The position numbers were made by a program, and so were the translations under genes. A model generated the notes under the pieces. That model ran no database searches. It worked only from the letters and a program-made list of their open reading frames with translations, and was not told the DNA's origin. From a virus, in the IMG/VR virus record IMGVR_UViG_3300025117_000028, positions 126,285 to 190,284 of that record: a stretch of DNA of 64,000 nucleotides, one strand, 5' to 3'. Shown here piece after piece: positions 1 to 60,519 of the stretch. Numbering within the stretch: position 1 is the first letter of the stretch; each line of letters begins with the position of its first letter.

Positions 1-1800
1 CTAGCCCTTTTTGGTTGGTCAAACGACTAATTTTTTTTTAGCCTAACTCTCCACGCTTTTGCTTAAAATCAAATACGGTGTTTCCATCCTCAGTATGAGT
101 GGAAACTTCCACGTTGCGGGCGCCTTGGCCGTTTACCGCAACAATAATTGCCCTTGCATCTTCAAGGGTAGCAGTGGAAGCGAGTTCATACGTTTGACCA
201 TTGTAACGTGCACTAACCATAAATCCTCCTTTTGGTTAACCAAACTTCAATATACTATGATCTATAGTAAAAGTTATTTCATTTTTATCGATGGTGATTG
301 TGCTTACATTTAAATTTGGTGTTCTAATTATTTCTGGAGTAGTTAAAGTAAAATTTTCTTTTAGTGTTGGTAATAATTGTTTTAGTTTTTCGTTATTAAT
401 AAGAATGATATATGTTTCATTAACTTCTGAAATTGTTAAGTCTTTATCTTCTAAGCTAGGATAAAGTTCTAATATCTTTTTTTTTATGTTATTTAACATT
501 TTTTAACCTGATTGTAAAACTAAAAAAAAGATTGAATATGTAAAAAGAACTCCACTCAAAAATGAAACTACATACCATTTGGTTTCGTTTATTGCCGGAG
601 ATTTACTACTAATTAATTGTTTCTTTAACAATATAAGATTATATTTCAAATTTTCGTTTTGTTTAATAGTTTGAGTATATTCAAGAATAAGTAAATCTTT
701 TAAATCTTTTGTTTCGAGAATTTGTAATACTTTTTCTCTTGATAATAAATACCCATTATAAGGACTATCTTCTCCTTTTTGTAAATAAACTGGTTCCTCT
801 GCAAAACTTAAATTGCAAAAAAGAAATAATGAAATAAGTATTAATCGCATGTTTTTGCTTCTCGTACCTTCTTGATCATATCTAAAAGTAATTCATTCAT
901 TTCCCAAGACGCATCTTGATCTTTTTTTGTGAAGACTGTTAGAAGATATTGATAATCTTTGTCTTCAAGTTTAACATCTAAAGATTTAGATTTATCTTTA
1001 TCCCATTGAAAATGATTATTAGAACTTTCAAGTTCTATCTCTTTTGCTTCTTCTTCGCTTATTGTAATCTTTTTTAAAATTTTTAATCCAGATTCTAAAT
1101 CTTCTGTACTACCTTTTAGTCCTCTGACTAAAGAAGTAATATATAAGCGTTCATAAATACTAAGTTCTTTTATTTCTTTCATATAACCTCTTAGATTATT
1201 AATCCTAATTCTGCAATGGCTTTTTGTAACTCTATATATTCTTCTTCTGATACTTCTTCCAGCTTGTCTGGATAAATTAAATCTATAATATTCCAAGCAA
1301 AACGAGCTTCAGAGACCTTCATTGGGTATTTATTTAAATAAGGAATATTTGTTGTTCCATCTAATACCAAACAATATATAGTATCTTGATGTTCAAATAC
1401 CATTTGTAATCTTACAGATGTAATTTCTCCAACTTCATTATGGAGATATGGATATTTTAATCCACCAGGAGTAAAATATGTTTTCTTAAGATCCTTTTCT
1501 TTTGCATTCCAAATGATTTTCATTTATCCCTCTTCTTTTTCGTTTCTGGAACAGGGGCTTCTGTCACTTTACATACCATTTCAAATGTTGCTACATTGCC
1601 TGTTAAATCACGTACCATAGCATAATGAGTAGGTGTGCTATCAACGGTTTTGATGATATGAATTAGTCGCCACTTATTCTTACAAGCTTCACATTGAATA
1701 TCTGCCATGTAATCAAAAGTGGCAGAGATTTCTTGTCCACATCTAGCTTCTGAATTAGACCCTTCTTTATGTTTACATCTAAACTTTACATTAAACTGCA

Positions 1801-4770
1801 TTAAGCCTCCTGGTTAATAATATCCATTTCATCTTTAATATAAGAAAGCATTTGATTTTGGAAAAACAAATGAACATCCTGATGTTGTAACGCTTCAAGA
1901 TTGAATTTGTATCCGTTGGTCATTCCAACAATATTGCTTACTAACTCTCCAATTTCGGTTTCATGGAGTTTTGTGATCTTTAAAAATGTTTTTATTTTTT
2001 CTTCTGATAAATTAAACTTTTGTAATGTATTAATGACGTACTCAATATTTTCTTTTTTAAGAATATTTTTCAGTATGAAAGGCGTAAAGAATTTACTCCC
2101 GCCCTCAACATGTTTGATACCTCGGACTAAACAATCTTGAACTAATCTTGCATATATGAAAATTAATTCATGCATTAATTCTTTATCGATGTAATTTTTG
2201 CCATAGGTCCATTCGCATAAGCCATACCATTCCCATAATTGTAATGTTCCAAATCCCATAAGGGTTTTAGCAATGGCGCTGTCTGCAAATATTTGTTTAT
2301 ACTTATCATAATCAATATAGTACCATCTAAAAGGTTGGAAATCAAGAGCTGAATTACTTAGTTCTTTTTTTGTATATTGTTTAATCCAGTCTATCTCATA
2401 TGGTCTTAGGTTTTTATCGGGATCTGTAACGTATATCTTTTCTAATAAATTTTGTCCCTCAATACTACTAGGAGCTAATATTGGGAATATATCTCCGTCG
2501 CAATCGCTTTGGTCATTAAGACAATCCAATGGATTACGTAATATAATAGATGCGCAAGCTTGTTTGTCAATAACATCGTTTATATTCCAGCCTATTTCAT
2601 TTAAGTAATACTCAAAATCATCGGCTGTCATAATCTTTTGAATAAATATTTGTCCAGGCCATATAACTGGATTTCTTGTTCCACAATGATAGGTTAGCCC
2701 ATTTTCTATTACAAGTTTATTAAAAGTAGGATGAAAAATAACAACATGTGTGCGAGGAACTCTCCAATCGTAAAGTTGTTTTGCTGATAGTCCGAATATT
2801 CTAGTTGTACAGTTAGCACTTATAAGTTTATTCTTCCCTATCAATTCGGATTTGATAGCATCTAAATATGCTTCATGAGCATTTTCTATTTGTTTTTTAT
2901 TGGTTATAAATTGATTGTTAGTCTTTTTCCCTCTTAGGGATAAGAGTAATCTATTTGCTCTACTAAAAATAGTTGTGTAGCGAACTTCTCCGCTATAAAT
3001 TTCATCAGATAATAGCCTGAGCATATATGCGCTGGGAAATCTGATTGTCAATCCATTGTGTTTATAAATAAAACCGTTGTTATCAAAATTTAAAAGTCCT
3101 TCATTCGGAACTTTATCTCCAAAAGTAATAATCGGGAATTTAATTCCTTCCATCCATTGGAGTAAATCTTCATGATTGAAAACAGGAATGTCTTTATTAT
3201 ATTGTTGAAGAATTTTAATAGATTCAACAACGCAATCTTTCTTAATTTTATTATCTTCTTTCTCCATGAGATGAAGAGCTAATTCATCGTATCCATAATG
3301 ATGTAAATATTTAATAACTTCTGGTAGAACCTTATGATCATCTTTTACACGACAATATTCCGAAGCTAATTCTGTAATTTGGATGGGTAATACTCCAGCC
3401 CATACTGTTTTAGTTACCCATTTATTATTAATTTTTCTAACCCAAGTAACTTTTTCAATCTTAGATTGAATATCGTTAATTTGTTCTTCGGACATATTGT
3501 TAATGTTATACGAACTGCCTTTAACCATTGCGTCTAGCCCTAATTTTGCCAAGGCAATGGTATTATATTTGGCTTTGATACTATTATGTCCCATTCTTAG
3601 ATCAATAGGATATGTTTTGTTTTGATAAATGATATAACCTAAATCTATAACAGGTTTAGTCATGCCCTTGATACCTGTATCTGAAACTATGCGCGTAGAA
3701 TTTAAACGGGCACGACTTTCCCATATAACATGGTAACTATTACGATAGGTTAAATTAGGATGTACCTCTAATACTGTTGCAGATAACAATCCTTGAGGGA
3801 TATGAATATCTTTACCATCTTTATCTTGAGCGATAACAGTAGAGCTATGTACTTTTTGACCTACAATTAATGGTAATTCTATCCCATCGGATAATTCTAA
3901 GTCTTGAGAACGAATTGGTTTGACTATGTTTTGAGTAAATGAACGAGCAGCTTCAATTTCTCCGCCTAATAAATCGTAAGTAGTAGTATTGATTTCGTCA
4001 AATACTATTAAACAATTTTTAGTGTGTGTAGTTTCATCAGGATTATCTTCCCATGATAAAACCGGTTTTGACTGTTTGATGAACTCTATGTGGTCATTAG
4101 CTACACACGATTTATGCCTTGACAGGAGTTGAGAAGCGTTTTTATCAGTATTAAAAATAGTCTTTACTTGACTTCCCTCAAAGTCATAACCAATAGCTTT
4201 ATAATTTTTCTTATTTAAATAAAGAGTAAAAAGACCACGAGTGGGTCCACTTTCACTACCACATAGTACTGGTAGTTCAGTTAGGATTTGTTTCATGAGG
4301 ACAACATTAAGTGATTGCCATTCTGTGCGAAAGGCATCACCTAAACATTGCCATTTTTCACCTGTCGTAGGATTGCTAGGGTGAATGAACTTAACTCTGT
4401 TCTCAAATTTTAATTTACTGTTGTCAGAAATAGGGATACTCGAAGCGCCTATTTCAACAAAACGTTGAATATCGTCTTTTAATAAATTAATAAAAGGTAC
4501 TTTTTGTTGTAAAATTTGTTCGAGTCTTTGATCTAAGATTTGACAGAATATATCCTGGGCACTATACCAGGCTTTAGTATTGTCTGTAAACATAATCATA
4601 GGCATGACTCGATTACAGACAAATTGTCCGTCAATATTCATGGGGAGAGTAAGAGAATAAACTCCGTTCGGGGAAGTGAATAATAATTCTACTTTTTTAT
4701 CATTAATGAGATATCGAAATATATGGGGATAAATTTGAGCATAGTAATCCAGAAGTTTTACAAGATTCAT
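1801..4770 (-). CDS. Putative single-chain two-barrel (double-psi beta-barrel) RNA polymerase, beta/beta'-like cores in one polypeptide
   Basis: DQSDCDGDIF (2491-2505) matches the catalytic DxDGD; upstream GTRNPVI resembles the beta' NRxP motif; RIVSDTGIKG (~3664-3693) resembles beta K..RHGQKG. Start moved to MNLVKLL behind an AAGGAGG RBS. Confidence 0.7.
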   Translation of the reverse strand: MNLVKLLDYYAQIYPHIFRYLINDKKVELLFTSPNGVYSLTLPMNIDGQFVCNRVMPMIMFTDNTKAWYSAQDIFCQILDQRLEQILQQKVPFINLLKDDIQRFVEIGASSIPISDNSKLKFENRVKFIHPSNPTTGEKWQCLGDAFRTEWQSLNVVLMKQILTELPVLCGSESGPTRGLFTLYLNKKNYKAIGYDFEGSQVKTIFNTDKNASQLLSRHKSCVANDHIEFIKQSKPVLSWEDNPDETTHTKNCLIVFDEINTTTYDLLGGEIEAARSFTQNIVKPIRSQDLELSDGIELPLIVGQKVHSSTVIAQDKDGKDIHIPQGLLSATVLEVHPNLTYRNSYHVIWESRARLNSTRIVSDTGIKGMTKPVIDLGYIIYQNKTYPIDLRMGHNSIKAKYNTIALAKLGLDAMVKGSSYNINNMSEEQINDIQSKIEKVTWVRKINNKWVTKTVWAGVLPIQITELASEYCRVKDDHKVLPEVIKYLHHYGYDELALHLMEKEDNKIKKDCVVESIKILQQYNKDIPVFNHEDLLQWMEGIKFPIITFGDKVPNEGLLNFDNNGFIYKHNGLTIRFPSAYMLRLLSDEIYSGEVRYTTIFSRANRLLLSLRGKKTNNQFITNKKQIENAHEAYLDAIKSELIGKNKLISANCTTRIFGLSAKQLYDWRVPRTHVVIFHPTFNKLVIENGLTYHCGTRNPVIWPGQIFIQKIMTADDFEYYLNEIGWNINDVIDKQACASIILRNPLDCLNDQSDCDGDIFPILAPSSIEGQNLLEKIYVTDPDKNLRPYEIDWIKQYTKKELSNSALDFQPFRWYYIDYDKYKQIFADSAIAKTLMGFGTLQLWEWYGLCEWTYGKNYIDKELMHELIFIYARLVQDCLVRGIKHVEGGSKFFTPFILKNILKKENIEYVINTLQKFNLSEEKIKTFLKITKLHETEIGELVSNIVGMTNGYKFNLEALQHQDVHLFFQNQMLSYIKDEMDIINQEA

Positions 4771-5473
4771 GTGAGCCTCCTTTGTCGCACTCGCAATTAT
4801 CTTCTTCGTAGCTTTCTTCTGCATAAAGATTGATCTGACGTTTTTTTACCTTAGGCTTATTAGTATATGTTACTTCTTCTACTATAGCTTCAGCTAAGCC
4901 TTGGCTTAATGCATCTTCTGCCGTGAACCATTGATCTGTTCTTAACCATTCTTCAACATCAAAAACAGGATGGTTTACTCTTTCGGAAATAAGTGTAAGA
5001 AATTTTTGACGCTGATAATTTACTAAATGTAAATGATTTTGTAAATTTGAATATGTTTCTGCGGCATATAAGAAGATATCATGTAACATGATATGAGCTG
5101 AAGGGTAAATTAGTCGATGGGGCATTGATAGAGCAATAATACCTGCTGCACTAGCGGCTTCTCCCTGTATTACTGCTGTTGCATTTTGAGAGGAAAGAAG
5201 GATGGAATCTATTATTCGATACATAGCATCTACATCTCCTCCTGGACTATCTATTAATAATAATGGAGGTTCCTGAGGAGTTAACATAGATAAATCTTCT
5301 TCAATTTGTTCCGCTAATTCTTGGCAAATTTCACCATAGACTTTAATGGTTTTGTCATTGATAGTAATATGGACACGTATGTCATCAGGTACAATACCTT
5401 TTTCTCCGGTTTTTTTTAGTTCTTTAATTATGCTCTTTTTATAATTAACTTGTTTAGCATGTGTGTTAATCAT
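4703..5473 (-). CDS. ClpP-like serine protease
   Basis: IDSPGGDV, GEAASAAG (catalytic Ser), IMLHD (catalytic His), DQWFTAEDALSQGLAEAI. Confidence 0.88.
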   Translation of the reverse strand: MINTHAKQVNYKKSIIKELKKTGEKGIVPDDIRVHITINDKTIKVYGEICQELAEQIEEDLSMLTPQEPPLLLIDSPGGDVDAMYRIIDSILLSSQNATAVIQGEAASAAGIIALSMPHRLIYPSAHIMLHDIFLYAAETYSNLQNHLHLVNYQRQKFLTLISERVNHPVFDVEEWLRTDQWFTAEDALSQGLAEAIVEEVTYTNKPKVKKRQINLYAEESYEEDNCECDKGGSHESCKTSGLLCSNLSPYISISH

Positions 5474-25827: not shown

Positions 25828-26111
25828 AGTAGTTATCAGGTGTGCTATTACGCCAAAGGCCAGTCTACCATTAGTAGGTTAACACCCCAAATTGTCAGTT
25901 TAACTACCTACTTAAACATCCTGACAATCCCATTTTCATGGCTTGAGTCATCTGTTCCGTCGAACAGACGAGCAGTACGCATACAAGCTCAGGTCTTGTT
26001 TTTATTCACTGACGCGCCAGCAAGCTGCCGAACTCTTAAACGCCTTTGCAATGTTAAGGGGCCACTCTTTAAAAGATGGCTGCTTCTAAGCCCACTTCCC
26101 GGATAACCACT
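25828..26111 (-). ncRNA. Structured ncRNA containing a split mimic of the 23S rRNA uL11-binding domain (H43-H44)
   Basis: GGAAGTGGGCTTAGAAGCAGCCATCTTTTAAAGAGTG ... GCGTAATAGCACAC, enclosed by a 10-bp terminal stem AGTGGTTATC/GATAACTACT. Confidence 0.8.
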
Positions 26112-34020: not shown

Positions 34021-34691
34021 TTCTCTACCCCAAGTCTTATCACTTTCTATGTGATTTTCTCAGGGAATCTGCTACTTTTCTTGTTTATGTTGCACTGCGT
34101 TAGGGAATCTTCCTGATCCCTACGGAGCCACACTCTTTTTCCCTCTCAATGATTTCTGACCCTTACGAAACCAAGGTATCAAAAATCCCTAAGGGGGAAT
34201 AAAAATGTGAAAATGCAGTGCGTCAAGGAAATCACTCGATCAGAGCGAGGAGGGCTTGGAGGTCGGGAGTGGCGAAAATTGCCCGGCCTAACACACGAGA
34301 GATGTGTTGCCGGTTTTGATCTGTTACGAGTTTGTTGTAAGCAGCGGATTGCGCTGCCCTAAACTCGTCACCTCCGAATTTATGAGCTTCGTCCATCGCT
34401 CGAGAAATATATTGTGGTTCGTAGCGCATATGTACCTCTCTATTTTAATTTTCGAAATAAGATTTATGTCACAGACCATACCCTGTGTAGTAACAGGGAT
34501 GATCTCCTGGATCTACGTCTTCGTCGATTTCTCGACAAAATACGAAGAGCCTATATAAATCGAAATATTTCTTTCTGCTCGCGTCGTCTATCAATGCGAG
34601 GAGCTTATGAGATTTTGCGCACGTATCTTCGTAAATCGCATTGTAAAGTCTCATGCGCGCCTCTTTTTCTTTTTTTATTTCACGGATATTT

Positions 34692-37600
34692 TTATGTCAA
34701 AGACGAATAACCGAGGAGAGCTTTTACTTTTTCAGCGAGCGAGCGCCAGCGAGCGAGCGCTGGTTTCTCTTTTTGAGTTTTGCTACTTTTCTTTTTTGTA
34801 GGGTTGGATACGGAGCGAATAGGTAGAGTCTCAGCCCTATAGGTGTAGGATAGCGACGAGCGAGCGCCAGCGAGTGAGGAGCGGTTGAACGAGAACCGAG
34901 GAGAGGTTACGGAGCGGGAGGAAGGGTGCGGTGACGGAGCGGCATTATATTCTGTATCGGTACTGGTACTTGTTTGCTTTAGAATATTGTTATAATCCAT
35001 TTCATTAAGAATCTTGGCGGCCATAAATACTGTTATGTGCTGCTTCTTTGCACTTACCAATAAATCTTTTACTCTATCCCATTGGGGTTTAACATTTACA
35101 AAAGGAGGTAAAACCATTAACTTTCCTCTAACTTTATAGTGTCGGATTACGTTGTAGTTTCTCCATAAAGCTGTTTGATATATTTTACTTTCATCTGTAT
35201 ATCGTTGACACATAGCTACTGCCCACATTTCTGCTATTAGTTCCAGTATGCCTACAGATTCTGGCGTTTCTGAATCTGTTGTAAAGTCTTGCCTCCAATA
35301 ATGGTTGGCCAATCTATCTAAATGATGTCCAACCTCATGGAAGAGAATTCTCTTGGTTGGGTCAGTTGCCAAGTCAATTGTTCTCATGGCAGGGTTATAA
35401 GCTCCATCGCAAAGGGTTAGGTATGAATTGATCCTCACCCTAAAGCCATAGTCATCAGCAAGAGATCTTGCCATATCTATAGTTATGGGGTCGTTTTCCC
35501 CTAACTTGTTAAGTTCTTGCTTGAGTGCAAGAATTTCTTCGGGACTCAATCCTTCTGAGCCATGGTAATTACGAGAGCGGCTCCACTCTGTCCAAGCTTC
35601 AAAAATCTCTTGATCTAAAGTAGAATCCATATGTCCCTCCGAGTAAAAGTCTTCGTCCAAAAAATCTTCATCTTCGTCGATCTTATCTTTTATTTGAGGA
35701 GTGTTAGGGTCTACTATATATTTCTTGACCTTCTTCAGTTGTTGAGCAAAGTCTTTAGAAGCAGAAGTGATCCGATTGCTCATGTCAAAACACTGAACTA
35801 CCTTGCCTGTCTGGACACTCACTTGCGCGCAGACAGTTCCTTTGCGGAAAAATAAGTCGCGCGAGTCTTTGTAACTTCCTAAACAATGACGCATCTCGGA
35901 TCCTATCTTTACCATGTCTAATTTTGTCTTGATCCTAAGATCTTCCCAACTTGGAGGCAGGGTCTTATTACATGGCATAACTTCATTGGGCATTGGAATA
36001 TTTGTAGAGAGATCGTTCTCTATTGCACGCTGATGATTCCAGATTGCCGTTTCTAATATTCTGACGGGAGATCCATTGTATCTGCGAGTACCAGGAATAT
36101 CGTCATTTAAGAGTTGAGCACCATCTTTAATAAACCTTATTAGCATATCCATCTTTTTCATAGATGGGATTGCTTTAACATGCAAGACTTCATTGCAGAA
36201 TTGTTTGTATGCAGTCTTGCTAGAAATAACCTTTAGCCCTATAACAGTAGCTCTTATCTCACGGGGAGTAAGCAAAGAGTAATCTGATGAAAGGTCGTAG
36301 TATCTAGTAGAATTAGTTAGAAGCCATACATAGTAATCATGTCTACTATTAAGAGCTTCAGACGGGATATCTATGCTAGGAATGGGTAAAAACCGCAACT
36401 TCTCTATGTTCTTAGGAGCGTGTTTTCCAAAAGGCATCTTGTTGCTTGCATAAAGAGAATCCCTTAGAGCTACTGTATCTATTAACCACCGAGCATAACC
36501 CGCTGGGACTTTCAATAAGTCCGTAGGATAGTCGAGGTCCCACATTGCTACATAGCAATCCTTAAACGGCTTCTGTGTCCGACAGGAAACTTGCAGTAGT
36601 TCTTTAAAACTAAGAGGAGAGAAACTATTCAATATAGAGGCCGCCCATTTAATATGGAAGGTCCTTATGAGAGGGAAGTCTTTTGGGAGTCGGCCTTTTT
36701 CCTTATCCTTTTTCATTCCTATATAGTATGAATTCTTATTTCTTACCATTGGATTATGTCCTAGATCTTTGTGCCTCCAGTGTCCAAAGAAGTCCTTTTG
36801 TTCGAGGTTGCTGGTGGTTAAGTCAACGTAAATGTCCTTTTCTAAAAGCACTAGAATTTTGTAGAGTGGTATATCTTTATCTGTAAGGGCTTTTACCTGA
36901 TCTTCTAGGCAAGATTCTTTTTGGCCCTCACAAATAGGGAACCAATAATATCTAGTATTTCGTAGGTGAGTATACATACACAAAGCCCAATACTTAACAT
37001 TGGCCTGTTCGGGAGGAGTTGGAGTATTAGGATGTTCATCTCCAATAAACAATCCATGTTTATTGAGTTGTTCAATTATCTTACTAATCTGATGTCCCTC
37101 CGAATTGAGTGAGATGCCAGCATTAAATAACTTATTTACATCAGTTTCGCCGGTTTCAATCTGATGCTCATAAGCCCTCTTGAGGATTAAGCCCATTTCT
37201 TTTCCTTGCTTATATCCCCTAGAGACTAAGTGTCTACCCATTAAGATAGGCTCGATTTTCCCTTCTCCGAACGATTCGAAATAGCCAAATGCCATTTGAG
37301 AAGGAATATGTGGATCGTTTAAGGAATAACCTTTCCGGCCGCAAGAATCTGCCTTAGACATTAATCCAATAACATCCAAGCGGATTCTATTGTGGAGACG
37401 ACGCCAAGCTGCAACTCCTGCCCCTGATTGGTGGAATTGACCGGGCATCATATGATTTCCAACAATGAGTTCAACCTTATTAATAAGATCGACTTCATTG
37501 GTCATAGATTCCATGAATTGACGAGCAATAGGTATACCTACTTGGTCATGCCCGTATGCCGTCAAAGTTTCGCGATCAGTGGTCTGTGGTTTACCTACGT

Positions 37601-40600
37601 CATGAAGCATAGCTCCAAACATGTAAGCAAGCTTCCAGGGCTCTGGTACTTGATCCTTGAGAATTGCCGCATTATCCAATACCATCAAGGTATGGACCCA
37701 AGCATCACCCTCAGGATGGTGCTCAGGATTTTGCTGGCAACCGATCAAGGCTTCCAGAGCCAAGAACCACTTAATCCAACCACAATCCTTGAGGAATTCT
37801 AATCCCATAGAAGGCTTATTAGCTTTCAGTAGGAGTTTCTTGAACTCTTCAAAGATCCTCTCCTTAGGCAGGGTAGGATATTCTGATTGCATCGAGCGAC
37901 ATAACTCGATGGTCTCAGAGGCTACCTTCTTACCTTTACGAGGCAGAAGTTGCATGATGCGCAAAACGCGCAATGGATCTTCAATGAAAGTTTCTGCGCA
38001 AGTGGCGCGCAAAATCCCTTCATTCAAATCCTTCATTCCACCGAAGTGATCTACAACTTCTCCGGTATGCAAATTTACATACATAGAGTTAATTGTAAGA
38101 TCCCTTCTCTTCCCCGCTTCTTCAGGAGTAAGATTGGGGAGTAACTCAACTTGGAAACCTTTGTGGCCTACACCACAACGATTCTCCAGTCGAGGAACAT
38201 TAAGATCTATGTCAGTAGTCCCGACTTTGACCTTAATAATTCCAAAGGCAGCACCAACCATATCTGCCTTATATCCCCATTCTTCCAGGTAATCTTGGAG
38301 TTGTTTCATTGAAAGTCCATAGACCTCAATGTCCCAATCCTTGATCTGTCGACCTTGGATGCGGTCAATGACTGCTCCTCCGATGAGGAGAGTCTTTGCT
38401 TTGACAGACCAAAGGTCTTGAAGCAAAACTTCCACATCACCAAGGTCAACCCCAAAGTCTTCGTCATGACCTTCACTGGCCATTGAGACGGTGATTTCAG
38501 TCATTTCTTCACCCTCCCAATCCCAAGTCTCTTCAGTCATGGTCAACCCCATACGATTAACTAATGACTTCACGATTGGGGAGGAAGTGCTCCTACAGTC
38601 CATTGTGACAGTCTTCACATTATTCTGCTTGAGTACCCGCATACAGCGAGTGATCAAGCGAGCAACGCAAGAGGAAGGAGATCCTGGAATTTTTGCCAGG
38701 TCAGCAATCTCTGCCTCATCTCCTTGGATGCTTCCAAGCAGATAAGCAGAATCGCCCTCTGTCATAGCCAAGATCTCACTGGGTTCACACTCCAGATATT
38801 CACAGATGCCTTCAAGGCTGAACTCTTCTGCCTTGTAGGATCGCATGAATTCTGGATATGCCAATTCCTCGATCCGAACGATCAGATCGAAGTTGATATC
38901 TTGGTGTCCCTCCGACGCCAGTTTCACGACACCCTCAGCGGTGTCGGTATAGTTAACTGGGGCCGATACCGGGAGACGAGTGACCTGGTACTCCTCTTGC
39001 AGCTTCTCGGAATACTTATTGTATCCGAGTCCGCAATAGACGGCGCCGATGCCGTCGGCCCTCACGGATTTTACTGCCCTCTTGAAGAGGTCATAAACCG
39101 TGGGGTCGCCACTTGCTCCTTCGATGTTATCAATAACAAGGATGCGGTTAGATACCCACACCCACGCCTGAGCAACAAGGCGTTTGCTATTGAATACCAC
39201 CCAGAAACAGCCATCTTTGCTGGCCATTCCATGGATAGCACACTCCGAGGCAAATCCTTCGTAGCTCTGACAACAGCCAGTATACCTACCAAGGAATGGT
39301 CCCCGGGGATCATTAACATCAAGAGTCTTCAGGGTGTAAGTCCCTTCAGAGACATTAACCCAAGGGATACTCTTGACTGGAGACTTATTGAACCAGTACT
39401 GAGTCAGCGTATTGAAGTCGCTAACTCCAGCCTGATAAGCCTCTGTCGCTAACGGGAGTAGTTCTGGAACTACTTTCCCGTAGGAGTTCTCAACCCCCTT
39501 CCTACAGATCTCTGCCTGTAGATCTTCTTTCTTGAGGAGTAGATACTCCTCAATGGGAATATCCTCAGTCCAAGACCGGAGGGGTTGCAACCAGTCCAGT
39601 TTGGAACAGTTGCGGAACTTCCAGTATAACTGGAAGATTTCCTTCTTTTCCAAAAGGTACACCTCGGTTTCCATTGTCTGGACTCCGACATCGTGTATTC
39701 TGGAGAGAAAGAGATCCACTCCTTCCTTGCCGTATTTAGCATATTTTGACAACATACGGGCAACGATAGCCGTCTGGTTGTCTTCCAGCAAAGATTTCCA
39801 ACCAAATTGGAAAAACCTCCAGTTCGATTTCAGGGCCACAATCTCCTTCCTGTCGCGAATGCCATCTATGATAGCTTTCGCCTGAGGAACACGCCCGAAG
39901 GTATTCATCCAATACGCTTCGACGTGATGTGGATTGTCTCTCCAGTTAAGCGCTCTCTTATAAGCGAGAACGCTTTGGGGGAGTTGACCATCCGTTCCCC
40001 AAGAGATGAGATTCCTAATGGAGAGAATCTCCACCCTGGAGATGTCTCCCAGAGTTTCAAGAGGAAGACCGGCATGTAACAATGTACCGGCCAAGAAGAT
40101 CCTCTCAAGCTCCGAGTACATTTGCATTGCCTGCCAGGCAACCAAATGGTCATCAAGGAATGAAAGAGACATCTCTAGTACTTTTTCTCCTTGCAAGGGC
40201 GTTGTTGCCCAATGGAAGGTTTCTCTCAGCATTTTCGCGATGCCAAGATACTTCCTCCTAGAGATGGGAGAGTCTATTTTGCTGGCTTTTTCTATGTTAA
40301 ACCAGCAACCTAAATTACTCCCATTGTATCCTTCGGCAATAAGCCAGTCAATATATTCCGAGGACAAATTTTGGGTCGTATATATCCCGTTTGTCAACCC
40401 TGGAATATAGTAACTGTAAATTGCCGAGACTACAGTTGCTCTGGTCTCAGAAGGACAGAGATATTCATCTGTCCTCTTTATCTCAGACAGGATATAGTCC
40501 CTTAGTTCCAGGGAGGGGTTGAGGACTATTCCCTTCTGCCAGACCAAGGCAATCTGTTGCCCTGGAGTAACGGTGTCCAAAGGAGAATCGATCTCCTCGA

Positions 40601-43600
40601 TATCCTCCTTGGACAACCCCTTACTCCTTAAGGGACGATTATGGATATGTTCACTCCCGTAAACAATCCAGACATCCCTAAAGACATGGATGTCATTCTC
40701 GTGCCCTTCACTGGCCATAGATGCCAAGGCGTTGAATTCCTCCTCGGACATCTCGGTCAGCCCACCGTGAGGCGGCTCAGGCGAACGACCTTTCTCGTTC
40801 GCGATGAGCACGTTCTCAGCGATGACGGCGTACTCCCCGCCGAACAGGTGGAACAGGTCACACCTGGTTTGAGGAGCAACTCCGATGTTCCGGAGGTCCT
40901 CAATCAGGTCAACCTGCTTCTCCGTCCGCTTCACAGCGTGGAGGGCCGCCTCATATTTTGCCCAACGCCTATCGTTGAGCAAAGCGAGAGCACCAATGGA
41001 CCGCAACACCTCGTCAGTCATGACGAAGGCGTAGAGGCCCATGGTGTCACGAGCCCGGAACCAGCGGAGAAGCTGGCGAGTCGTGAGACTACCGAGCATT
41101 TGGTGGTACATATCGTCCCACAACGCTTTCGCATGGAGACTCGTACCATCCTCAGCTCGGTTGACATATTCCAACCCTCCCTTGTGGAACCGATAACCCT
41201 TCATGTGGTTATACAGTTCGGGGAGGTCGAAGGACTGCACCGCCCGAAGAGTCCGGCGGAAGTACTTCTCGTTGGACTGCACCCCATGCTTGAGGGCAGA
41301 CACGAGATACCCCGCCAACTCGTTTCCGAGTGGGGCGTCCTTGTCAGTGGCCAGCGCATCGATGATAGGATCGAGCGCCAACCCTAACTGGCACATGAAT
41401 TTCGCTGCATCCTCTACCTTGACTTTCGCCAAAGTAGGCTCCGCAGTTTCCGCCAATTGGAACGCCTTCGCAACAAAGACACGTTGGAGATACGTGGCCT
41501 TGTCATCCTCGACATTTGTCCAGACTTCGAACTCACGTCCGTAGTCCTCTTGAGTACTCCTACTATAGGAGTTCAGGACTTCCAGACAACGTCCGAACTG
41601 GATCTCCGCGTCGATAGCCTTGAGCATCTGCCAAGGTTCGAGTGGGTTGGAGTTTGTCTCTTCCAGGAAGTTTTGCATCATTTCATTGATGCGCTCCTGG
41701 AAGTCGGGATCGTAACCATATTTGTTGCCATCAAAAACAACACGGTTACCCTGGTTCTCGATCTCGGTGATCTCCTGATCGGAGAAGATCCTATGCAACC
41801 ATGCCCGTTTGATTTGGACATGGTAGATCGAGAGGATGTCCACGACCTCACGGACCAGAGAGACGTTACTCTCTTTGATTATCTTCATCATTGCGATGAA
41901 GACTGGCCCGGTGAGTTTCTCGTTCCAGAGGACACCGAGAGGTGAGTCTCCCAGTTTGGTCTGAATGACCTTGCTGGTTGCCCAAGGCAGCACCTTAAGC
42001 AACTCGGAAGCGGTGTGTTTCTTGAAGCCGAGTACGGCATCATAGAAACGGCGACCGTCATTGGTCTTCGCTCCCAAGATTGCTTCCCTGTGCTGCCAGG
42101 GATTCAGCCTCTTGACTTGGACGGACTCATCTCCGCCCTCGAAGGAATTCAGGTCCGACAACCAGAACTCCTTCTCGTATTCGACGACAACAAGACGTCC
42201 CTTATCATCGTCGATGTACTTCTTGAACCCACGGACGGTACCAATGATGGCACCAAGTTCGCGGGTCTTCGGATAACACCGAGGAATGTCCCGACAGACA
42301 CCGTACTCATCGAAGAGAACTTCGTTGAGCCGGGTGAGATTCCCACGGTGTTCGCGGACGGCAGCGTCGAAGATCGCCTGTTCGTTGGCGTCTTCACTAC
42401 CTTCCTCAACCTCGTGAAGGATCTCACTGTTGTCGGGATCTTCCTCGTCGGGAACTTCCGACTTAATGGCGTTAACAACCCGATTCCACGGATTGTTGAT
42501 GCCTGCCAAGTCACGGAAGCTCTCATCCCACAGAATGTCAAAGTTGCTCATGGTAATTCTCCTATGAGCGTTAACCCGGTTACCCACCGGGATTGGGTCC
42601 TCTTTATGCCCCTCGGATTTGAAGGACGGCTTCGTCAATGGCTGCAAACGAGGCGCAACCAATAACTTACCATTCCCCTCGAACACCGTAATCGAGCCTT
42701 CCGACTCGCTATGGTGTCCGATTCCAATCGCCGACATGTTGAGTTCCTCTTTGTAGAGATACTCAAACCTCCGGCTACCGTTCGCTGCCTCGGGACGGTC
42801 CGACCACATGTCAATGGGCCGGATCCAACGTCCATAGTCGCCATACATCTTCATGTAGACGACATACGATTCGCCGAACATCCCCTCGGCAAACCCGAGG
42901 ACCTGGTATTCGTTACCCTTGAAGTGGCGATAGATGCCACCACGGATAACGTCATGCCCTTCCGAGCACAGGTCTAATTCCTCCATATCTAACTCAGCAT
43001 CGATCATGTTGATCTCCGACTGAGCGGCTTTGAGGACAACTGGATCTTCAGAGAAGTCCAACTCCCTCTGGAGGAACGTCAACCGCTTTTGAACCTGCTC
43101 TTGGCGACTGTCGGTCGTCACCAAGTACAGGGAGCGGTGTCCCTCGGAGGCCAGGACTGCGTCCTGATACTTACCATTCCTACGATGGGCTTCGTACCAG
43201 GCTTCAGCCTTCTTCCAGGAGAGGTCACGGACGACCAGACCTTGCCTGGTCCATCCGGACACACCTGCCCGGAAGTTCATCCAAGCGTCCGCAGCCACTT
43301 CGCTGCTGCCACGCAGGATGTGGCCAATCTCGTGGAGGAGGTCAGCCACGTTGGCGTCGGCGCGGTAGTAAGCAATGCCACCGGTCAGCCTGGCGGGAGC
43401 GTCAATGCTCTCGCTGTGCTTGAAGGTGACGTTGTACTTCCTGCCCAGGCGGTTGGCATTGGCCTGAAGTTTGGCCACGGCCTTGGCCTCAACCTTCTTG
43501 GCGAAGGTGAGGTTGGCGACGGCCTTCTCCCAAGACTGACGAGCCTTGGTGAAAGCCAGGGCCAAACCCTTGACTTCCGTCTTCCTTTGACGGAGGCAGA

Positions 43601-44474
43601 TCAAGAGCTTCCTGGTCTTTGTCAAGGCCAGGGTATTGACCCTGATCTCCCTGCGGAGATTGACCACCTTCTTCTCGGCTTTGATCATGCCGAGGTCGTC
43701 GTACCAGGCGTTGGCGAACTCCTGGACAGCGATTTCCTTGGCATTGACCAGAGCACTCTTGCTCTCCTCAACGCCAATGGTCAGGGACTTGACCATGGCC
43801 ATGGTCTCCCTGATTTTGGAAGAGATCTTGGGCAAGGTAGTGCCGGAGACCTCCAGGTTGATGGAAGTCATATCCATGACTTCTTTGATCTTGACGGTGT
43901 CGCCGGTTTGCGGATTGCGAACGGTTCGGGCGGCCCTCTTCTTCACCGTCCAGGTACCGAAGCCGGGATTGGTGAACCGCTTTGTCACCTTGGCGAGGTT
44001 AACCTCGCCCCCCCAGGTGAGGGTGGGGAGGGCGGCGACCATCTTCATCACCTTGGTGATCTTCTGGGTGCTCTTGACGCTGCTGATGCGTCGTTGACGC
44101 CTCACCCAGCGGCTCTCTTTCGTGATCTTGGAGGCCGGGATGACCTCCTTGATCACGGTCTTGGAGGCCGGGATGTCGATAACCGCGCCGGTCTGGGGAT
44201 TCCTGCTGCGCCGTCGCATGATCTGGTCTTGGGCCTTAGCCCTCAACCAGATTTCGTTCTCGATATCCTTCCAGGTGTGGCACGCCTTGGTCAACGTTAT
44301 CATGTGGCCACGGCTGACACTTAACCCGTTGAGAGCCGCAATGGCTCTCTTCACCTTGACCCAACTCCGGACCGAGGCCCGGGTGTCGAACAGGACGTCG
44401 CACACTTCGTTGATCACGGTCTTGGTCAGACCGTGATGTTTAAGGGTGTTACTTAAGACTAATTGCTGGTTCAT
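34692..44474 (-). CDS. Giant polyvalent/polyprotein (~3,260 aa): HU-like arms, zincin, DUF1653, PcfJ/GNAT-like modules, CCA-adding nucleotidyltransferase-HD, C-terminal zincin; SEGH-delimited
   Basis: Start MNQQL behind GGAGG; RNPQTG x2; HEIGH 43320-43334; GIYRHFKGNEY; GCCQ..AQAWVW..IDNIE; GGAVID/DWDIE/RRDLTIN/EDPLR/LHDVGKP; MRHCLGSY; HEVGH 35325-35339. Confidence 0.85.
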   Translation of the reverse strand: MNQQLVLSNTLKHHGLTKTVINEVCDVLFDTRASVRSWVKVKRAIAALNGLSVSRGHMITLTKACHTWKDIENEIWLRAKAQDQIMRRRSRNPQTGAVIDIPASKTVIKEVIPASKITKESRWVRRQRRISSVKSTQKITKVMKMVAALPTLTWGGEVNLAKVTKRFTNPGFGTWTVKKRAARTVRNPQTGDTVKIKEVMDMTSINLEVSGTTLPKISSKIRETMAMVKSLTIGVEESKSALVNAKEIAVQEFANAWYDDLGMIKAEKKVVNLRREIRVNTLALTKTRKLLICLRQRKTEVKGLALAFTKARQSWEKAVANLTFAKKVEAKAVAKLQANANRLGRKYNVTFKHSESIDAPARLTGGIAYYRADANVADLLHEIGHILRGSSEVAADAWMNFRAGVSGWTRQGLVVRDLSWKKAEAWYEAHRRNGKYQDAVLASEGHRSLYLVTTDSRQEQVQKRLTFLQRELDFSEDPVVLKAAQSEINMIDAELDMEELDLCSEGHDVIRGGIYRHFKGNEYQVLGFAEGMFGESYVVYMKMYGDYGRWIRPIDMWSDRPEAANGSRRFEYLYKEELNMSAIGIGHHSESEGSITVFEGNGKLLVAPRLQPLTKPSFKSEGHKEDPIPVGNRVNAHRRITMSNFDILWDESFRDLAGINNPWNRVVNAIKSEVPDEEDPDNSEILHEVEEGSEDANEQAIFDAAVREHRGNLTRLNEVLFDEYGVCRDIPRCYPKTRELGAIIGTVRGFKKYIDDDKGRLVVVEYEKEFWLSDLNSFEGGDESVQVKRLNPWQHREAILGAKTNDGRRFYDAVLGFKKHTASELLKVLPWATSKVIQTKLGDSPLGVLWNEKLTGPVFIAMMKIIKESNVSLVREVVDILSIYHVQIKRAWLHRIFSDQEITEIENQGNRVVFDGNKYGYDPDFQERINEMMQNFLEETNSNPLEPWQMLKAIDAEIQFGRCLEVLNSYSRSTQEDYGREFEVWTNVEDDKATYLQRVFVAKAFQLAETAEPTLAKVKVEDAAKFMCQLGLALDPIIDALATDKDAPLGNELAGYLVSALKHGVQSNEKYFRRTLRAVQSFDLPELYNHMKGYRFHKGGLEYVNRAEDGTSLHAKALWDDMYHQMLGSLTTRQLLRWFRARDTMGLYAFVMTDEVLRSIGALALLNDRRWAKYEAALHAVKRTEKQVDLIEDLRNIGVAPQTRCDLFHLFGGEYAVIAENVLIANEKGRSPEPPHGGLTEMSEEEFNALASMASEGHENDIHVFRDVWIVYGSEHIHNRPLRSKGLSKEDIEEIDSPLDTVTPGQQIALVWQKGIVLNPSLELRDYILSEIKRTDEYLCPSETRATVVSAIYSYYIPGLTNGIYTTQNLSSEYIDWLIAEGYNGSNLGCWFNIEKASKIDSPISRRKYLGIAKMLRETFHWATTPLQGEKVLEMSLSFLDDHLVAWQAMQMYSELERIFLAGTLLHAGLPLETLGDISRVEILSIRNLISWGTDGQLPQSVLAYKRALNWRDNPHHVEAYWMNTFGRVPQAKAIIDGIRDRKEIVALKSNWRFFQFGWKSLLEDNQTAIVARMLSKYAKYGKEGVDLFLSRIHDVGVQTMETEVYLLEKKEIFQLYWKFRNCSKLDWLQPLRSWTEDIPIEEYLLLKKEDLQAEICRKGVENSYGKVVPELLPLATEAYQAGVSDFNTLTQYWFNKSPVKSIPWVNVSEGTYTLKTLDVNDPRGPFLGRYTGCCQSYEGFASECAIHGMASKDGCFWVVFNSKRLVAQAWVWVSNRILVIDNIEGASGDPTVYDLFKRAVKSVRADGIGAVYCGLGYNKYSEKLQEEYQVTRLPVSAPVNYTDTAEGVVKLASEGHQDINFDLIVRIEELAYPEFMRSYKAEEFSLEGICEYLECEPSEILAMTEGDSAYLLGSIQGDEAEIADLAKIPGSPSSCVARLITRCMRVLKQNNVKTVTMDCRSTSSPIVKSLVNRMGLTMTEETWDWEGEEMTEITVSMASEGHDEDFGVDLGDVEVLLQDLWSVKAKTLLIGGAVIDRIQGRQIKDWDIEVYGLSMKQLQDYLEEWGYKADMVGAAFGIIKVKVGTTDIDLNVPRLENRCGVGHKGFQVELLPNLTPEEAGKRRDLTINSMYVNLHTGEVVDHFGGMKDLNEGILRATCAETFIEDPLRVLRIMQLLPRKGKKVASETIELCRSMQSEYPTLPKERIFEEFKKLLLKANKPSMGLEFLKDCGWIKWFLALEALIGCQQNPEHHPEGDAWVHTLMVLDNAAILKDQVPEPWKLAYMFGAMLHDVGKPQTTDRETLTAYGHDQVGIPIARQFMESMTNEVDLINKVELIVGNHMMPGQFHQSGAGVAAWRRLHNRIRLDVIGLMSKADSCGRKGYSLNDPHIPSQMAFGYFESFGEGKIEPILMGRHLVSRGYKQGKEMGLILKRAYEHQIETGETDVNKLFNAGISLNSEGHQISKIIEQLNKHGLFIGDEHPNTPTPPEQANVKYWALCMYTHLRNTRYYWFPICEGQKESCLEDQVKALTDKDIPLYKILVLLEKDIYVDLTTSNLEQKDFFGHWRHKDLGHNPMVRNKNSYYIGMKKDKEKGRLPKDFPLIRTFHIKWAASILNSFSPLSFKELLQVSCRTQKPFKDCYVAMWDLDYPTDLLKVPAGYARWLIDTVALRDSLYASNKMPFGKHAPKNIEKLRFLPIPSIDIPSEALNSRHDYYVWLLTNSTRYYDLSSDYSLLTPREIRATVIGLKVISSKTAYKQFCNEVLHVKAIPSMKKMDMLIRFIKDGAQLLNDDIPGTRRYNGSPVRILETAIWNHQRAIENDLSTNIPMPNEVMPCNKTLPPSWEDLRIKTKLDMVKIGSEMRHCLGSYKDSRDLFFRKGTVCAQVSVQTGKVVQCFDMSNRITSASKDFAQQLKKVKKYIVDPNTPQIKDKIDEDEDFLDEDFYSEGHMDSTLDQEIFEAWTEWSRSRNYHGSEGLSPEEILALKQELNKLGENDPITIDMARSLADDYGFRVRINSYLTLCDGAYNPAMRTIDLATDPTKRILFHEVGHHLDRLANHYWRQDFTTDSETPESVGILELIAEMWAVAMCQRYTDESKIYQTALWRNYNVIRHYKVRGKLMVLPPFVNVKPQWDRVKDLLVSAKKQHITVFMAAKILNEMDYNNILKQTSTSTDTEYNAAPSPHPSSRSVTSPRFSFNRSSLAGARSSLSYTYRAETLPIRSVSNPTKKKSSKTQKEKPALARWRSLAEKVKALLGYSSLT
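37104..38465 (-). other. tRNA nucleotidyltransferase (class II CCA-adding type) plus HD domain embedded in the polyprotein
   Basis: LIGGAVID, KDWDIEV, RRDLTINSM, EDPLRVLR, ERIFEEF, HHPEGD.WVHT, LHDVGKP, GHD; flanked exactly by SEGH motifs. Confidence 0.9.
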
Positions 44475-45099
44475 ATTTCCTCCATAAAGAGGGTTGACTT
44501 CTGGCCCCGAACCATTAGGTACCCAGAAGTTTGGGCATCTTGTGCCCGCCGGGGTTATGGACTCCCGGCAGCCTCGTGATTCTGGCTCACGTCGCCCTGT
44601 TTCGGATTCTCCACCGCTCATCATGAGGGAGAAATCCGCAACCACTCCTCCTTGAGTGGAGATATATGAGACGATTTTTTCTTCGGGGTTCGTCTCAAGC
44701 CCCTATTTTTCACCAGGAAGAGGGGGTAAGACCTAAGATGAGTGACTAGACGGTCTCACTCACCCTCCCTTCCCGGTGAAAACGTGGGGTTACTCTCATG
44801 CCTCTCCGGTAGCGCCCCAAAACTTCCGGAGAGAGGGGGGTGGGCATCGAACGCCGATGTTTCTCACCCTCATACTTCACTGGGTACTCCTTCTAAATTA
44901 TTTCCAGATTTATTTTCATATAGGAAAATTACAGATTCTTCCCCTTCTAAATTTATTTCAAACTTTATTTTCCGTAGGAATTTTTCACTCATGGGATCCT
45001 TCTCTAAAAGCATTCCATCCATGTAATTTGAATCTTGCCTCTCTCTATTTTCATTCATTCCCTACACTTGGGAATATCAAAAAATATTTTTCCTGGGTA

Positions 45100-58269: not shown

Positions 58270-60519
58270 ATGGAAAAATATTTAGAGCTTTTTGATAGGG
58301 TGCTTTTAAAACCTATCTCTAATTTAGAACCGCATAAACGATTCTTCTTTGAAACTAAAGATGCCACCTCTGAAACCGGCCACTCATTGATCGTTGAAAT
58401 GGCAGCTACGTTTGCCGGGGTGGTAACTTGGCATAATGCTTTATATCTGCCAAGTAGAATGCGCAATTCTGTTTATACAATGCTCCCTAATGCAAAAAGA
58501 GATTATTGTATTCCTATCCTAGTTGGACATGACGATTCTAAAGATCCAATTGGAAGAATCATATCTGCTGAATATATAGATACGACTAAAGGGTTAGGTA
58601 TTACAGATTCAGTTATAGAAGCAATTAATTATGGATCTCTCAGTGGAAAATCCTTACAAAAAGCCGTTAATCATTTTAGTAAAAATTATCTGACACAAGA
58701 CAATTGGCGTGGAATGGGCTTTATTTTAGTCAAAGCCAAGATCACCGATCCCGATGCCATCCGAAAAATACTAGATGAACGTTATTTGCCAGTCTCTTCT
58801 TCACAAAGGACTAACCAAGCTATTTGTTCTATTTGCTTTCAAGATTGGTTGGACGAAGACGGAATTTGTGAACACAAGCCCGGATCGGTTTATGATGGTA
58901 AAAAAGCCTTCTTAATTGCTGGTGATTTTTTCTACAATGAAATATCTTGCGTAAATCAAGGAGCCAATCCATTCGCTAAAATTATTGGCGTCTCTAAAGA
59001 TGAAATGCTGGTTGATTCTGTTAAAGAAACACCAATGCTTGAATATTCCTTTAAAGCTTTCCGCCAAAAAGGTAGTGATTTATTAGAATTGAATGATAGT
59101 CTTATATTAGGAGATAAACAGGAGGATTTGATGAACTTACAAGACAAAGTGCGCTCTCTCTATATAACCTTATACGGAGAAGATTATTCTTCTATCTCTG
59201 CTAATATAGAGAAGCCCGAAGATAAAGATCCGGGTGCAATATTGCAGGCTTTAATTAAGTTATTAGAAGTTGAAATGTCATCGATGGAAGAAAAAGATTT
59301 CTTAAAACTTCCTGAAGATAAGATGACTGAATTACTGAAGACAACCGTAGAAAAAATGACAACTCCTAAAGCTGAAGTAAAAGATGAAACTCCTAAGCTT
59401 TTAGTTGATGGAGAAAATGCCACCCAAATTATAGAGGATGTTTTAGCTGAATTTTATCCCACCAAAGACGAAGAAAAAGAATGTAAAGAATATTTAAATG
59501 CCCTTCCTCAAAAAGATGGAGTCGAAATTGCAGATCTTATTCTTACTTCGATAGAAGACTTTTTTATAAAGAAATATGGCGAAACTGATATTATGGACTT
59601 GACAGATCCAGAAAAAGGTTGGGATGTCTTTAAAAAAGAACTGATTCAGGCAGGATTATTCGATAGTTTAAAAGACAAGGATCTATATTCTGAAGACGCA
59701 AAGTTATCAGCCGAACAACGTAAGAAGTTGAATTCAAAGAGCTTCTGTGGTCCCAATAGAAGTTTCCCATGCTCTGACTGTCAGCATATCGTTGCGGCCA
59801 GACGTCTAATTGGGAGATATAAAGGTCCTGGCTCTAAAGAAGCAATTTTAGCCTGTGTTAATAGAAAAGCCAAACAAATGGGTTGTGATAAGAGTGAAGA
59901 TAAGGTTATAATTCCGAAAGAAGAAACCAAACAGGATACTATGCCAATTTTAACCCAGGAACAGAAAATGATTCTGATTGACTCCCTCAAGACCGAAGGT
60001 TTAATTAAAGCAAATGAACCCTGTCAGGAATGTTTAACTTTACAACAACATATAAAAGTGTTAAATTATTTACATGATAGCCTCGGAATGGAACTAGAAG
60101 AATTAAACAAAGAAAACAAGACCCTCCTTGTTGATTCGTTAATTCAACTAAAGGCTATTGCAGAAGGTCCTGAATCGGTAAAAGATCAGGTGGAACTTAT
60201 GAAAACTTTTGAAGAACGTACAATGGAATCCTTAAAAGACAGTATTAACGATTTGAGAAAAAAGGTTTCTGTTAATGAAATTCAGAAAAAGCTGAACCAA
60301 GAAACTCCTCCTGAAATTAAACCCGAAGATTCTCCTATTAAAGATACTGTTCCCTCAGTACCTAAAGTAGAAGATAAACAGGAAATAAAAGACGACGGTG
60401 ATAGTGAAGCACAGGAAGCGTTAAAGAAATATAAGCGCTTACAGAAGACCAATTCTATCAAAGCAGATAGGTTCCATCAGCTAATGGTAGAAAAGGGTAT
60501 TTTTAAATCAAAAAACTAA
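58270..60519 (+). CDS. Prohead protease fused to scaffold, with DUF6582-like insert
   Basis: PILVGHD..DPIGRI, AIRKILDERY..VS, EISCVN.GA; LSAEQRKKL...GPNRSFP..D..H..AA; acidic coiled-coil tail. Confidence 0.8.
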   Translation: MEKYLELFDRVLLKPISNLEPHKRFFFETKDATSETGHSLIVEMAATFAGVVTWHNALYLPSRMRNSVYTMLPNAKRDYCIPILVGHDDSKDPIGRIISAEYIDTTKGLGITDSVIEAINYGSLSGKSLQKAVNHFSKNYLTQDNWRGMGFILVKAKITDPDAIRKILDERYLPVSSSQRTNQAICSICFQDWLDEDGICEHKPGSVYDGKKAFLIAGDFFYNEISCVNQGANPFAKIIGVSKDEMLVDSVKETPMLEYSFKAFRQKGSDLLELNDSLILGDKQEDLMNLQDKVRSLYITLYGEDYSSISANIEKPEDKDPGAILQALIKLLEVEMSSMEEKDFLKLPEDKMTELLKTTVEKMTTPKAEVKDETPKLLVDGENATQIIEDVLAEFYPTKDEEKECKEYLNALPQKDGVEIADLILTSIEDFFIKKYGETDIMDLTDPEKGWDVFKKELIQAGLFDSLKDKDLYSEDAKLSAEQRKKLNSKSFCGPNRSFPCSDCQHIVAARRLIGRYKGPGSKEAILACVNRKAKQMGCDKSEDKVIIPKEETKQDTMPILTQEQKMILIDSLKTEGLIKANEPCQECLTLQQHIKVLNYLHDSLGMELEELNKENKTLLVDSLIQLKAIAEGPESVKDQVELMKTFEERTMESLKDSINDLRKKVSVNEIQKKLNQETPPEIKPEDSPIKDTVPSVPKVEDKQEIKDDGDSEAQEALKKYKRLQKTNSIKADRFHQLMVEKGIFKSKN

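Follow-up and report, generated by a model that had tools for sequence, protein, structure and literature searches.

The giant gene described here, which encodes 3,260 residues at 34692–44474 on the minus strand of a groundwater phage contig, is most likely a string of nine formerly separate proteins joined into one chain. The tetrapeptide SEGH occurs eight times in that chain, and its reading as a repeated consensus at protein boundaries is supported, with copies 4 and 5 uncertain. We propose that the chain is an early phage polyprotein, translated in one piece and then cut apart at the recognition site [LMF]-x-S-E-G-H, with one of the two zincins in the chain as the most likely enzyme. All coordinates refer to the window, meaning the whole stretch of 64,000 nucleotides that was analysed, unless another contig is named (Table 1).

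Table 1. Features of the giant gene, its surroundings and related contigs.
Feature	Residues	Coordinates	Strand	Remarks
Giant ORF	1-3260	34692..44474	minus	heads long non-structural minus-strand block; divergent from terminase/head module
Leader		44475..44900	minus	GC-rich, structured; 76-nt hairpin 44707-44782; folding z = -5.3
Module 0	1-442	43149..44474	minus	net charge +41; host-gene patchwork, predicted helical stretch, zincin
Host HU gene 1 piece	9-31	44381..44449	minus	in frame, 64/69 nt
Second host HU gene piece	88-107	44154..44213	minus	in frame, 57/60 nt
Host ATP synthase gamma gene, 5′ end	129-148	44031..44090	minus	in frame, 59/60 nt
Host HU gene 1, DNA-binding arm	165-197	43885..43982	minus	in frame, 94/98 nt
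N-terminal zincin	HEIGH 381-385 + E392	43155..43442	minus	Atlas M78/ImmA-IrrE 0.87-0.88; NF038122 E 0.057
SEGH copy 1	443	43137..43148	minus	directly behind N-terminal zincin; low-confidence model segment, zincin poorly modelled
Module 1	447-503	42966..43136	minus	acidic two-helix hairpin (model)
SEGH copy 2	504	42954..42965	minus	joint of helical hairpin and DUF1653; linker between segments of pLDDT ~90
Module 2	508-619	42618..42953	minus	DUF1653 and tail
SEGH copy 3	620	42606..42617	minus	within disordered stretch (model)
Module 3	624-1254	40713..42605	minus	no significant family or homologue
SEGH copy 4	1255	40701..40712	minus	acidic, Pro/Gly-rich stretch upstream; sequence only
Module 4	1259-1853	38916..40700	minus	C-terminal domain (1703-1804) matches cyanophage MaMV protein
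SEGH copy 5	1854	38904..38915	minus	at start of GNAT-like module; least secure boundary
Module 5	1858-1999	38478..38903	minus	probable RimI-like GNAT, weak HMM matches
SEGH copy 6	2000	38466..38477	minus	between final GNAT strand and CCA enzyme
Module 6	2004-2457	37104..38465	minus	complete CCA-adding/HD tRNA nucleotidyltransferase
SEGH copy 7	2458	37092..37103	minus	natural C-terminus of free-standing CCA/HD enzymes
Module 7	2462-2944	35643..37091	minus	C-terminal part PcfJ-like, E 0.0017, below cut-off
SEGH copy 8	2945	35631..35642	minus	DNA also reads GGAGG + 5 nt + in-frame ATG
Module 8	2949-3260	34692..35630	minus	zincin HEVGH 3046-3050 + E3078, then low-complexity basic tail
ClpP-like protease		4703..5473	minus	intact-looking, same strand as giant gene
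Presumed prohead protease/scaffold		58270..60519	plus	assignment from gene order (flanked by portal and capsid genes), not from an HMM
Proteins with ~40-residue TDFGSG repeat		L005 1860-6425; L011 4442-8245; L013 3160-6447; L014 5913-8468		in relatives

The SEGH motif

The eight copies were found exactly where a first-pass annotation had placed them; the 12-nucleotide coordinates given there cover SEGH itself, but not the two preceding residues of the six-residue labels. For the giant ORF the expected number is 0.023, in keeping with the earlier estimate of well below one. The runner-up among independent tetrapeptides has three copies, and in 2,000 shuffles no tetrapeptide of whatever kind rose above five. 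At the DNA level, all eight of the degenerate matches to SEGH in the window lie in the giant-ORF frame, against 1.07 expected, and none of 100 shuffles reached eight. Position −2 of the motif is Leu, Met or Phe in every copy (background 0.156). Neither SEGH nor a close variant was found in the other ORFs of at least 50 residues of the 125-kb contig.

The pairwise DNA identity of the copies averages 8.68 of 12 nucleotides, against 8.69 predicted from codon usage (P = 0.45), and the serine is encoded by TCC, TCG and AGT, thus by both the TCN and the AGT classes. An identity no higher than this prediction, together with the mixture of serine codons, points to selection on the peptide, and the earlier statement that the peptide and not the DNA is conserved therefore holds. 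The near-misses SEGS (residue 591) and SEGL (residue 2973) had also been listed and do exist, alongside an unlisted SEGT (residue 1709); with three observed and 0.95 expected, they are not clearly above chance.

Position of the motif relative to the modules

The CCA/HD enzyme provides the strongest test of the joints. Three free-standing phage homologues of it, 59, 50 and 43% identical to module 6, start at the equivalent of about residues 2003–2012, within some nine residues of copy 6. Two of them end at the equivalents of residues 2457 and 2458, at the beginning of copy 7, and the third continues for about 25 residues. There is no SEGH inside this multi-domain unit, so that the dividing lines it marks are those of former genes and not of single domains. 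Alignments of DUF1653 proteins mostly start at residues 505–513, directly behind copy 2. In AlphaFold models, copies 1, 3 and 6 fall within segments of pLDDT below 50, copy 2 joins two segments of pLDDT about 90, and copy 7 forms the loop following the last CCA helix; because unaligned regions are modelled poorly, the models give weak evidence of a boundary at copies 1 and 3 and no information at copy 5. A domain edge lies at most four residues away for five of the eight copies (P about 0.003, with the edges partly chosen by the analyst). Every SEGH stands between two modules, and neither end of the chain has one. Steps in third-position GC content (GC3) along the gene showed no significant coincidence with the motif positions (P = 0.06). 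The claim that the motif marks module joints is thus supported by homologue ends, alignment starts, models and the edge test; copy by copy the mapping is less uniform, as copy 5 may overlap what we take, by analogy with the RimI fold, to be the first GNAT strand.

Among the domains proposed in the first-pass annotation, DUF1653, the CCA/HD enzyme and both HExxH motifs were confirmed. The GNAT is weakly rather than firmly supported (PHROG E 0.018, RimI E 0.15), as is the PcfJ-like domain, whose match lies below the cut-off. The C-terminal zincin matches the metalloprotease family phrog_87 (E 0.007), and PDB sequence searches for the GNAT and the zincin confirmed neither. Residues 1703–1804 of module 4 are 34% identical to part of a free-standing 695-residue protein of cyanophage MaMV (pairwise E 2e-11).

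Integrity and relatives of the giant gene

The ORF is uninterrupted and begins with an ATG preceded by a GGAGG ribosome site; upstream of this ATG the frame remains open for 57 codons, as far as a GTG at 44645. Misassembly is unlikely, because the assemblies of several runs predict an identical 3,260-residue product. Four runs, with patchy cover, contained no indel, deletion or joint at any SEGH. The one long joint, 43982–44381, proved to be the host HU gene itself.

A word search with the full-length protein returned only the protein itself and an unrelated protein having a CCA domain. Members of differing length in its 90% cluster are the same gene under alternative start calls. When residues 1–1195 were compared by phmmer with 1.84 billion representatives, the best 150 matches were DUF1653 and HU proteins only, and single-module queries yielded either nothing or matches at the level of a domain, with no homologous giant protein in the databases searched. 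Relatives identified by their terminase (33–39% identity) share the overall layout of this phage, and no giant ORF was found in the flank examined; at the giant-gene locus, distant relatives carry separate, mostly small genes. The nearest terminase relative (56%) is on a 2.7-kb contig.

Recurring sequences between modules were also seen in other large proteins. In the relatives, large late proteins upstream of the terminase contain a between-module repeat of about 40 residues ending in TDFGSG (Table 1); this repeat is unrelated to SEGH, and its HMM matches nothing in the contig. An unrelated, tape-measure-like protein of 3,779 residues (L001 8–11347) embeds a whole CCA enzyme and has a recurring G-[FHY]-[VIT]-P-N-F motif between its modules.

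Host, gene position and leader

CRISPR spacers that match the phage make Deltaproteobacteria bacterium RIFOXYA12_FULL_61_11 (about 60% GC) its very likely host. Three of the 66 spacers in the array of this bacterium match the contig, over 35/35, 30/34 and 33/36 nucleotides, against at most 72% for shuffled spacers. Their targets (26039–26073, 34140–34173 and 34756–34791) all have one orientation with respect to the minus-strand block, and that of the 33/36-nucleotide spacer falls within the giant gene. Residues 9–197 of the giant protein (43885–44449) include four in-frame pieces of host genes, 60–98 nucleotides long and 93–98% identical. This patchwork at the 5′ end of the gene may represent a mode of gene building of its own.

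The giant gene is the first of a long block of non-structural genes on the minus strand and diverges from the module that holds the terminase, portal and capsid genes. Its GC3 declines along the chain, from 0.79 (module 0) to 0.38 (module 8), compared with 0.17–0.31 in nearly all other large genes and 0.22–0.31 in the structural genes. Its place at the head of the non-structural strand and its host-like codons make it a probable early gene, adapted to translation in the host. The leader region gave no family in an Rfam search, and no sigma-70-like promoter was found upstream of the gene on the minus strand.

The small genes downstream (5000–34700, minus strand) have a patchy GC3 of 0.15–0.66, with clusters of host-like genes, and several of them have a KDPxTGLxWG motif in common. 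Between 15922 and 31020 there are seven tRNA-like genes, with anticodons including Ile TAT (twice), Leu TAA and Lys TTT; two of the seven have irregular anticodon loops. This set, with its anticodons for AT-rich codons, suits an AT-rich phage whose host is GC-rich, and also a need for a CCA enzyme.

Candidate proteases

Four proteases of the phage are candidates for the cutting enzyme: the two zincins within the chain, the ClpP-like protein and the presumed prohead protease. Both zincins retain HExxH and the downstream glutamate, and for both the family leads, which lie below thresholds, are to M78/ImmA-IrrE. The N-terminal zincin ends three residues ahead of copy 1. A first SEGH directly behind this zincin, with none before it, matches the prediction for a self-releasing leader protease.

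The presumed prohead protease was among the candidates of the first-pass annotation and is now disfavoured. A different motif, D-S-[LIVMF], recurs in this protein (8 copies, 1.2 expected) and is enriched in four of six relatives and weakly in the portal, whereas the giant protein has one copy where 3.4 are expected. SEG does not occur in the portal, the protease/scaffold or the capsid proteins, and the virion module does not include the giant gene. That the head-protease motif differs, and is not enriched in the giant protein, favours self-processing by the chain's own zincins. The longer form of the head motif, hydrophobic-x-D-S-hydrophobic, is common to the presumed prohead protease and relatives L005, L009, L010 and L011, and may be the site of an Asp-specific head protease.

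Discussion

On the evidence of the sequence, it is likely that the giant protein is cleaved at SEGH; if it is, the enzyme would probably be one of its own zincins. The full proposal, an early polyprotein cut at SEGH and most likely by its own zincin, stands in our judgement at close to an even chance. The N-terminal zincin would be the prime candidate, freeing itself first and afterwards cutting the remaining chain. A single translation start would then yield equimolar amounts of a leader that binds DNA, an enzyme for the repair of tRNA ends, a probable acetyltransferase and several uncharacterised effectors. A scissile bond between Glu and Gly (SE|GH) is a guess borrowed from the chemistry of the T4/phiKZ proteases. 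We count in favour of a polyprotein the DUF1653 and CCA boundaries, the pLDDT profile, the separate genes of the relatives and the intact HExxH motifs. Counted against cleavage is the fact that the N4 virion RNA polymerase, ArdC and TraC1, all zincin-bearing, are delivered uncut (PMC5512222). A wider scenario is more tentative, possible rather than probable: the first early genes of the phage would have been fused into a polyprotein in the style of RNA viruses, which would stay out of the virion and be cut by its own zincin at a strict sequence code. New genes would be gained whole, with the code at their former stop codons, and the leader would have been put together from in-frame, almost identical stretches of host genes that are abundant.

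Several other explanations of SEGH have to be weighed. It could be the cleavage site of another enzyme, namely the ClpP-like protease, a host protease, or the prohead protease acting after glutamate on a packaged protein. The ClpP-like gene looks intact and lies on the giant gene's strand, the strongly basic module 0 could travel with packaged DNA, and in four copies an A-S-E precedes a small residue, matching the A-X-E motif and small P1′ residue of SPN3US gp245 (PMC10052503). We nevertheless consider this unlikely, given that the head proteins carry D-S-[LIVMF] instead of SEG, that gp245 chiefly takes off N-terminal propeptides (PMC10052503), that the GC3 of the structural genes is unlike that of the giant gene, and that the host genome is without a SEGH family, having about one match in a real ORF. 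SEGH might also be a tag that is left uncut, for docking, chaperone binding, packaging or as a metal-binding linker, on a protein functioning as a single chain. Its invariant His and Glu could hold a metal or a partner, and certain zincin-bearing polyvalent proteins do remain whole (PMC5512222). However, the modules are functionally unrelated and known as free proteins, and the motif is missing at the chain ends, where a tag could equally be placed, so that we regard this reading as improbable.

A role in translation, by stop-and-restart or internal initiation, or an origin as the read-through ribosome-binding scar of gene fusions, is more doubtful again. GGAGG lies within copies 5, 7 and 8, copy 8 is followed at normal spacing by an in-frame ATG, and anti-Shine-Dalgarno pairing of the copies is slightly above that of random recodings (P = 0.03); the ribosome site of the host HU gene likewise reads TCGGAGG, and the motif is located where the stop codons of free-standing genes fall. 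Yet seven of the eight copies have no in-frame start codon within the next four codons, a Shine-Dalgarno resemblance comes with any Glu-Gly codon pair, and a scar would not preserve the His, the Ser and the hydrophobic residue in frame across TCN/AGT switches. We know of no bacterial 2A-like precedent. An origin of the peptide in ribosome-binding sites is compatible with its later use as a cut site, and from its sequence the possible internal start at copy 8 (35626–35642, minus strand), a good ribosome-binding site, might also allow the C-terminal zincin to be made separately. Chance, or a short DNA repeat serving as a recombination joint, is very improbable: copies 4 and 6 are alike in their preceding Met-Ala and their AGT GAA codons, but the shuffle tests, the lack of excess DNA identity between copies, and the four runs of patchy cover, with no deletion or joint at any copy, largely refute this reading.

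Cutting of polyvalent phage proteins by zincins has been assumed since 2017 without defined sites, and the idea now gains eight exact candidate sites and two built-in candidate enzymes. The CCA enzyme provides an easily assayed reporter which, with the evidence against the head protease, opens the idea to direct tests in E. coli. Should it hold, it would mean polyprotein-style gene expression in the early region of a DNA phage and a new sequence-specific protease. Giant phage ORFs may need to be annotated as several proteins.

Comparison with known systems

In composition the giant protein compares with the polyvalent proteins of phages and conjugative elements, for which separation by zincins has already been proposed (Iyer et al., 2017; PMC5512222). 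Likenesses include unrelated enzymes in one chain, zincins, a RimI-like GNAT and DNA-binding parts. Where polyvalent proteins have 2–15 unrelated domains, the giant protein has the HU pieces, two zincins, DUF1653, CCA/HD, a probable GNAT and a PcfJ-like domain; the zincin-like MPTase, with its HExxH and a Glu further along, is present twice (HEIGH 381 with E392, HEVGH 3046 with E3078), and the portal-terminase phage origin is reflected in the terminase, portal and capsid genes of the window. Searches of Pfam, PHROGs and NCBIfam found no LPD family, DarB methylase-helicase, ART or PBECR, and modules 3 and 7 are largely without family. Capsid packing is the accepted view for the phage examples (PMC5512222), whereas the giant gene lies outside the virion module, looks early and is host-adapted; its position and codon bias argue against capsid packing. 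That paper has no recurring junction motif ('linker' gives 0 matches) and leaves CCA and PcfJ unmentioned (PMC5512222). Our search of the largely open-access literature on phage polyproteins and junction motifs found no paper describing such a junction code, in agreement with the first-pass annotation, but processing by zincins had been put forward before (PMC5512222).

Prohead processing of the T4/phiKZ type likewise uses a short Glu-containing motif followed by a small residue, at several sites per protein. In SPN3US, the A-X-E motif of gp245 is common to the capsid, the portal and the protease itself, and cleavage mostly removes propeptides (PMC10052503). A prohead substrate would thus be expected to share its motif with these proteins, which the SEGH protein does not: a single non-structural protein has SEGH, and the motif of the head proteins is a different one. 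The M78/ImmA/IrrE zincins, towards which both zincins of the giant protein lean, resemble the proposed enzyme in cutting one defined bond in a loop, as IrrE does in DdrO at L106/R107 (PMC6868357). Their known substrates differ in being repressors on separate chains, and the family assignment of the giant-protein zincins is below thresholds.

RNA-virus polyproteins contain a protease that cuts them at a consensus sequence repeated along the chain. The giant gene shares with them a single ORF, an embedded protease and a short consensus for each protein boundary, but it belongs to a dsDNA phage, its protease is a metalloprotease and its modules form a mosaic of swappable effectors, so that the parallel is a working analogy and not a kinship. 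What is new in this case is a probable early gene, a head-protease motif that differs, and a host identified by CRISPR spacers together with a patchwork of its genes. It stands apart from these known systems in that its motif is strict, coincides with the natural end of a protein, belongs to a non-virion setting and disagrees with the head-protease motif.
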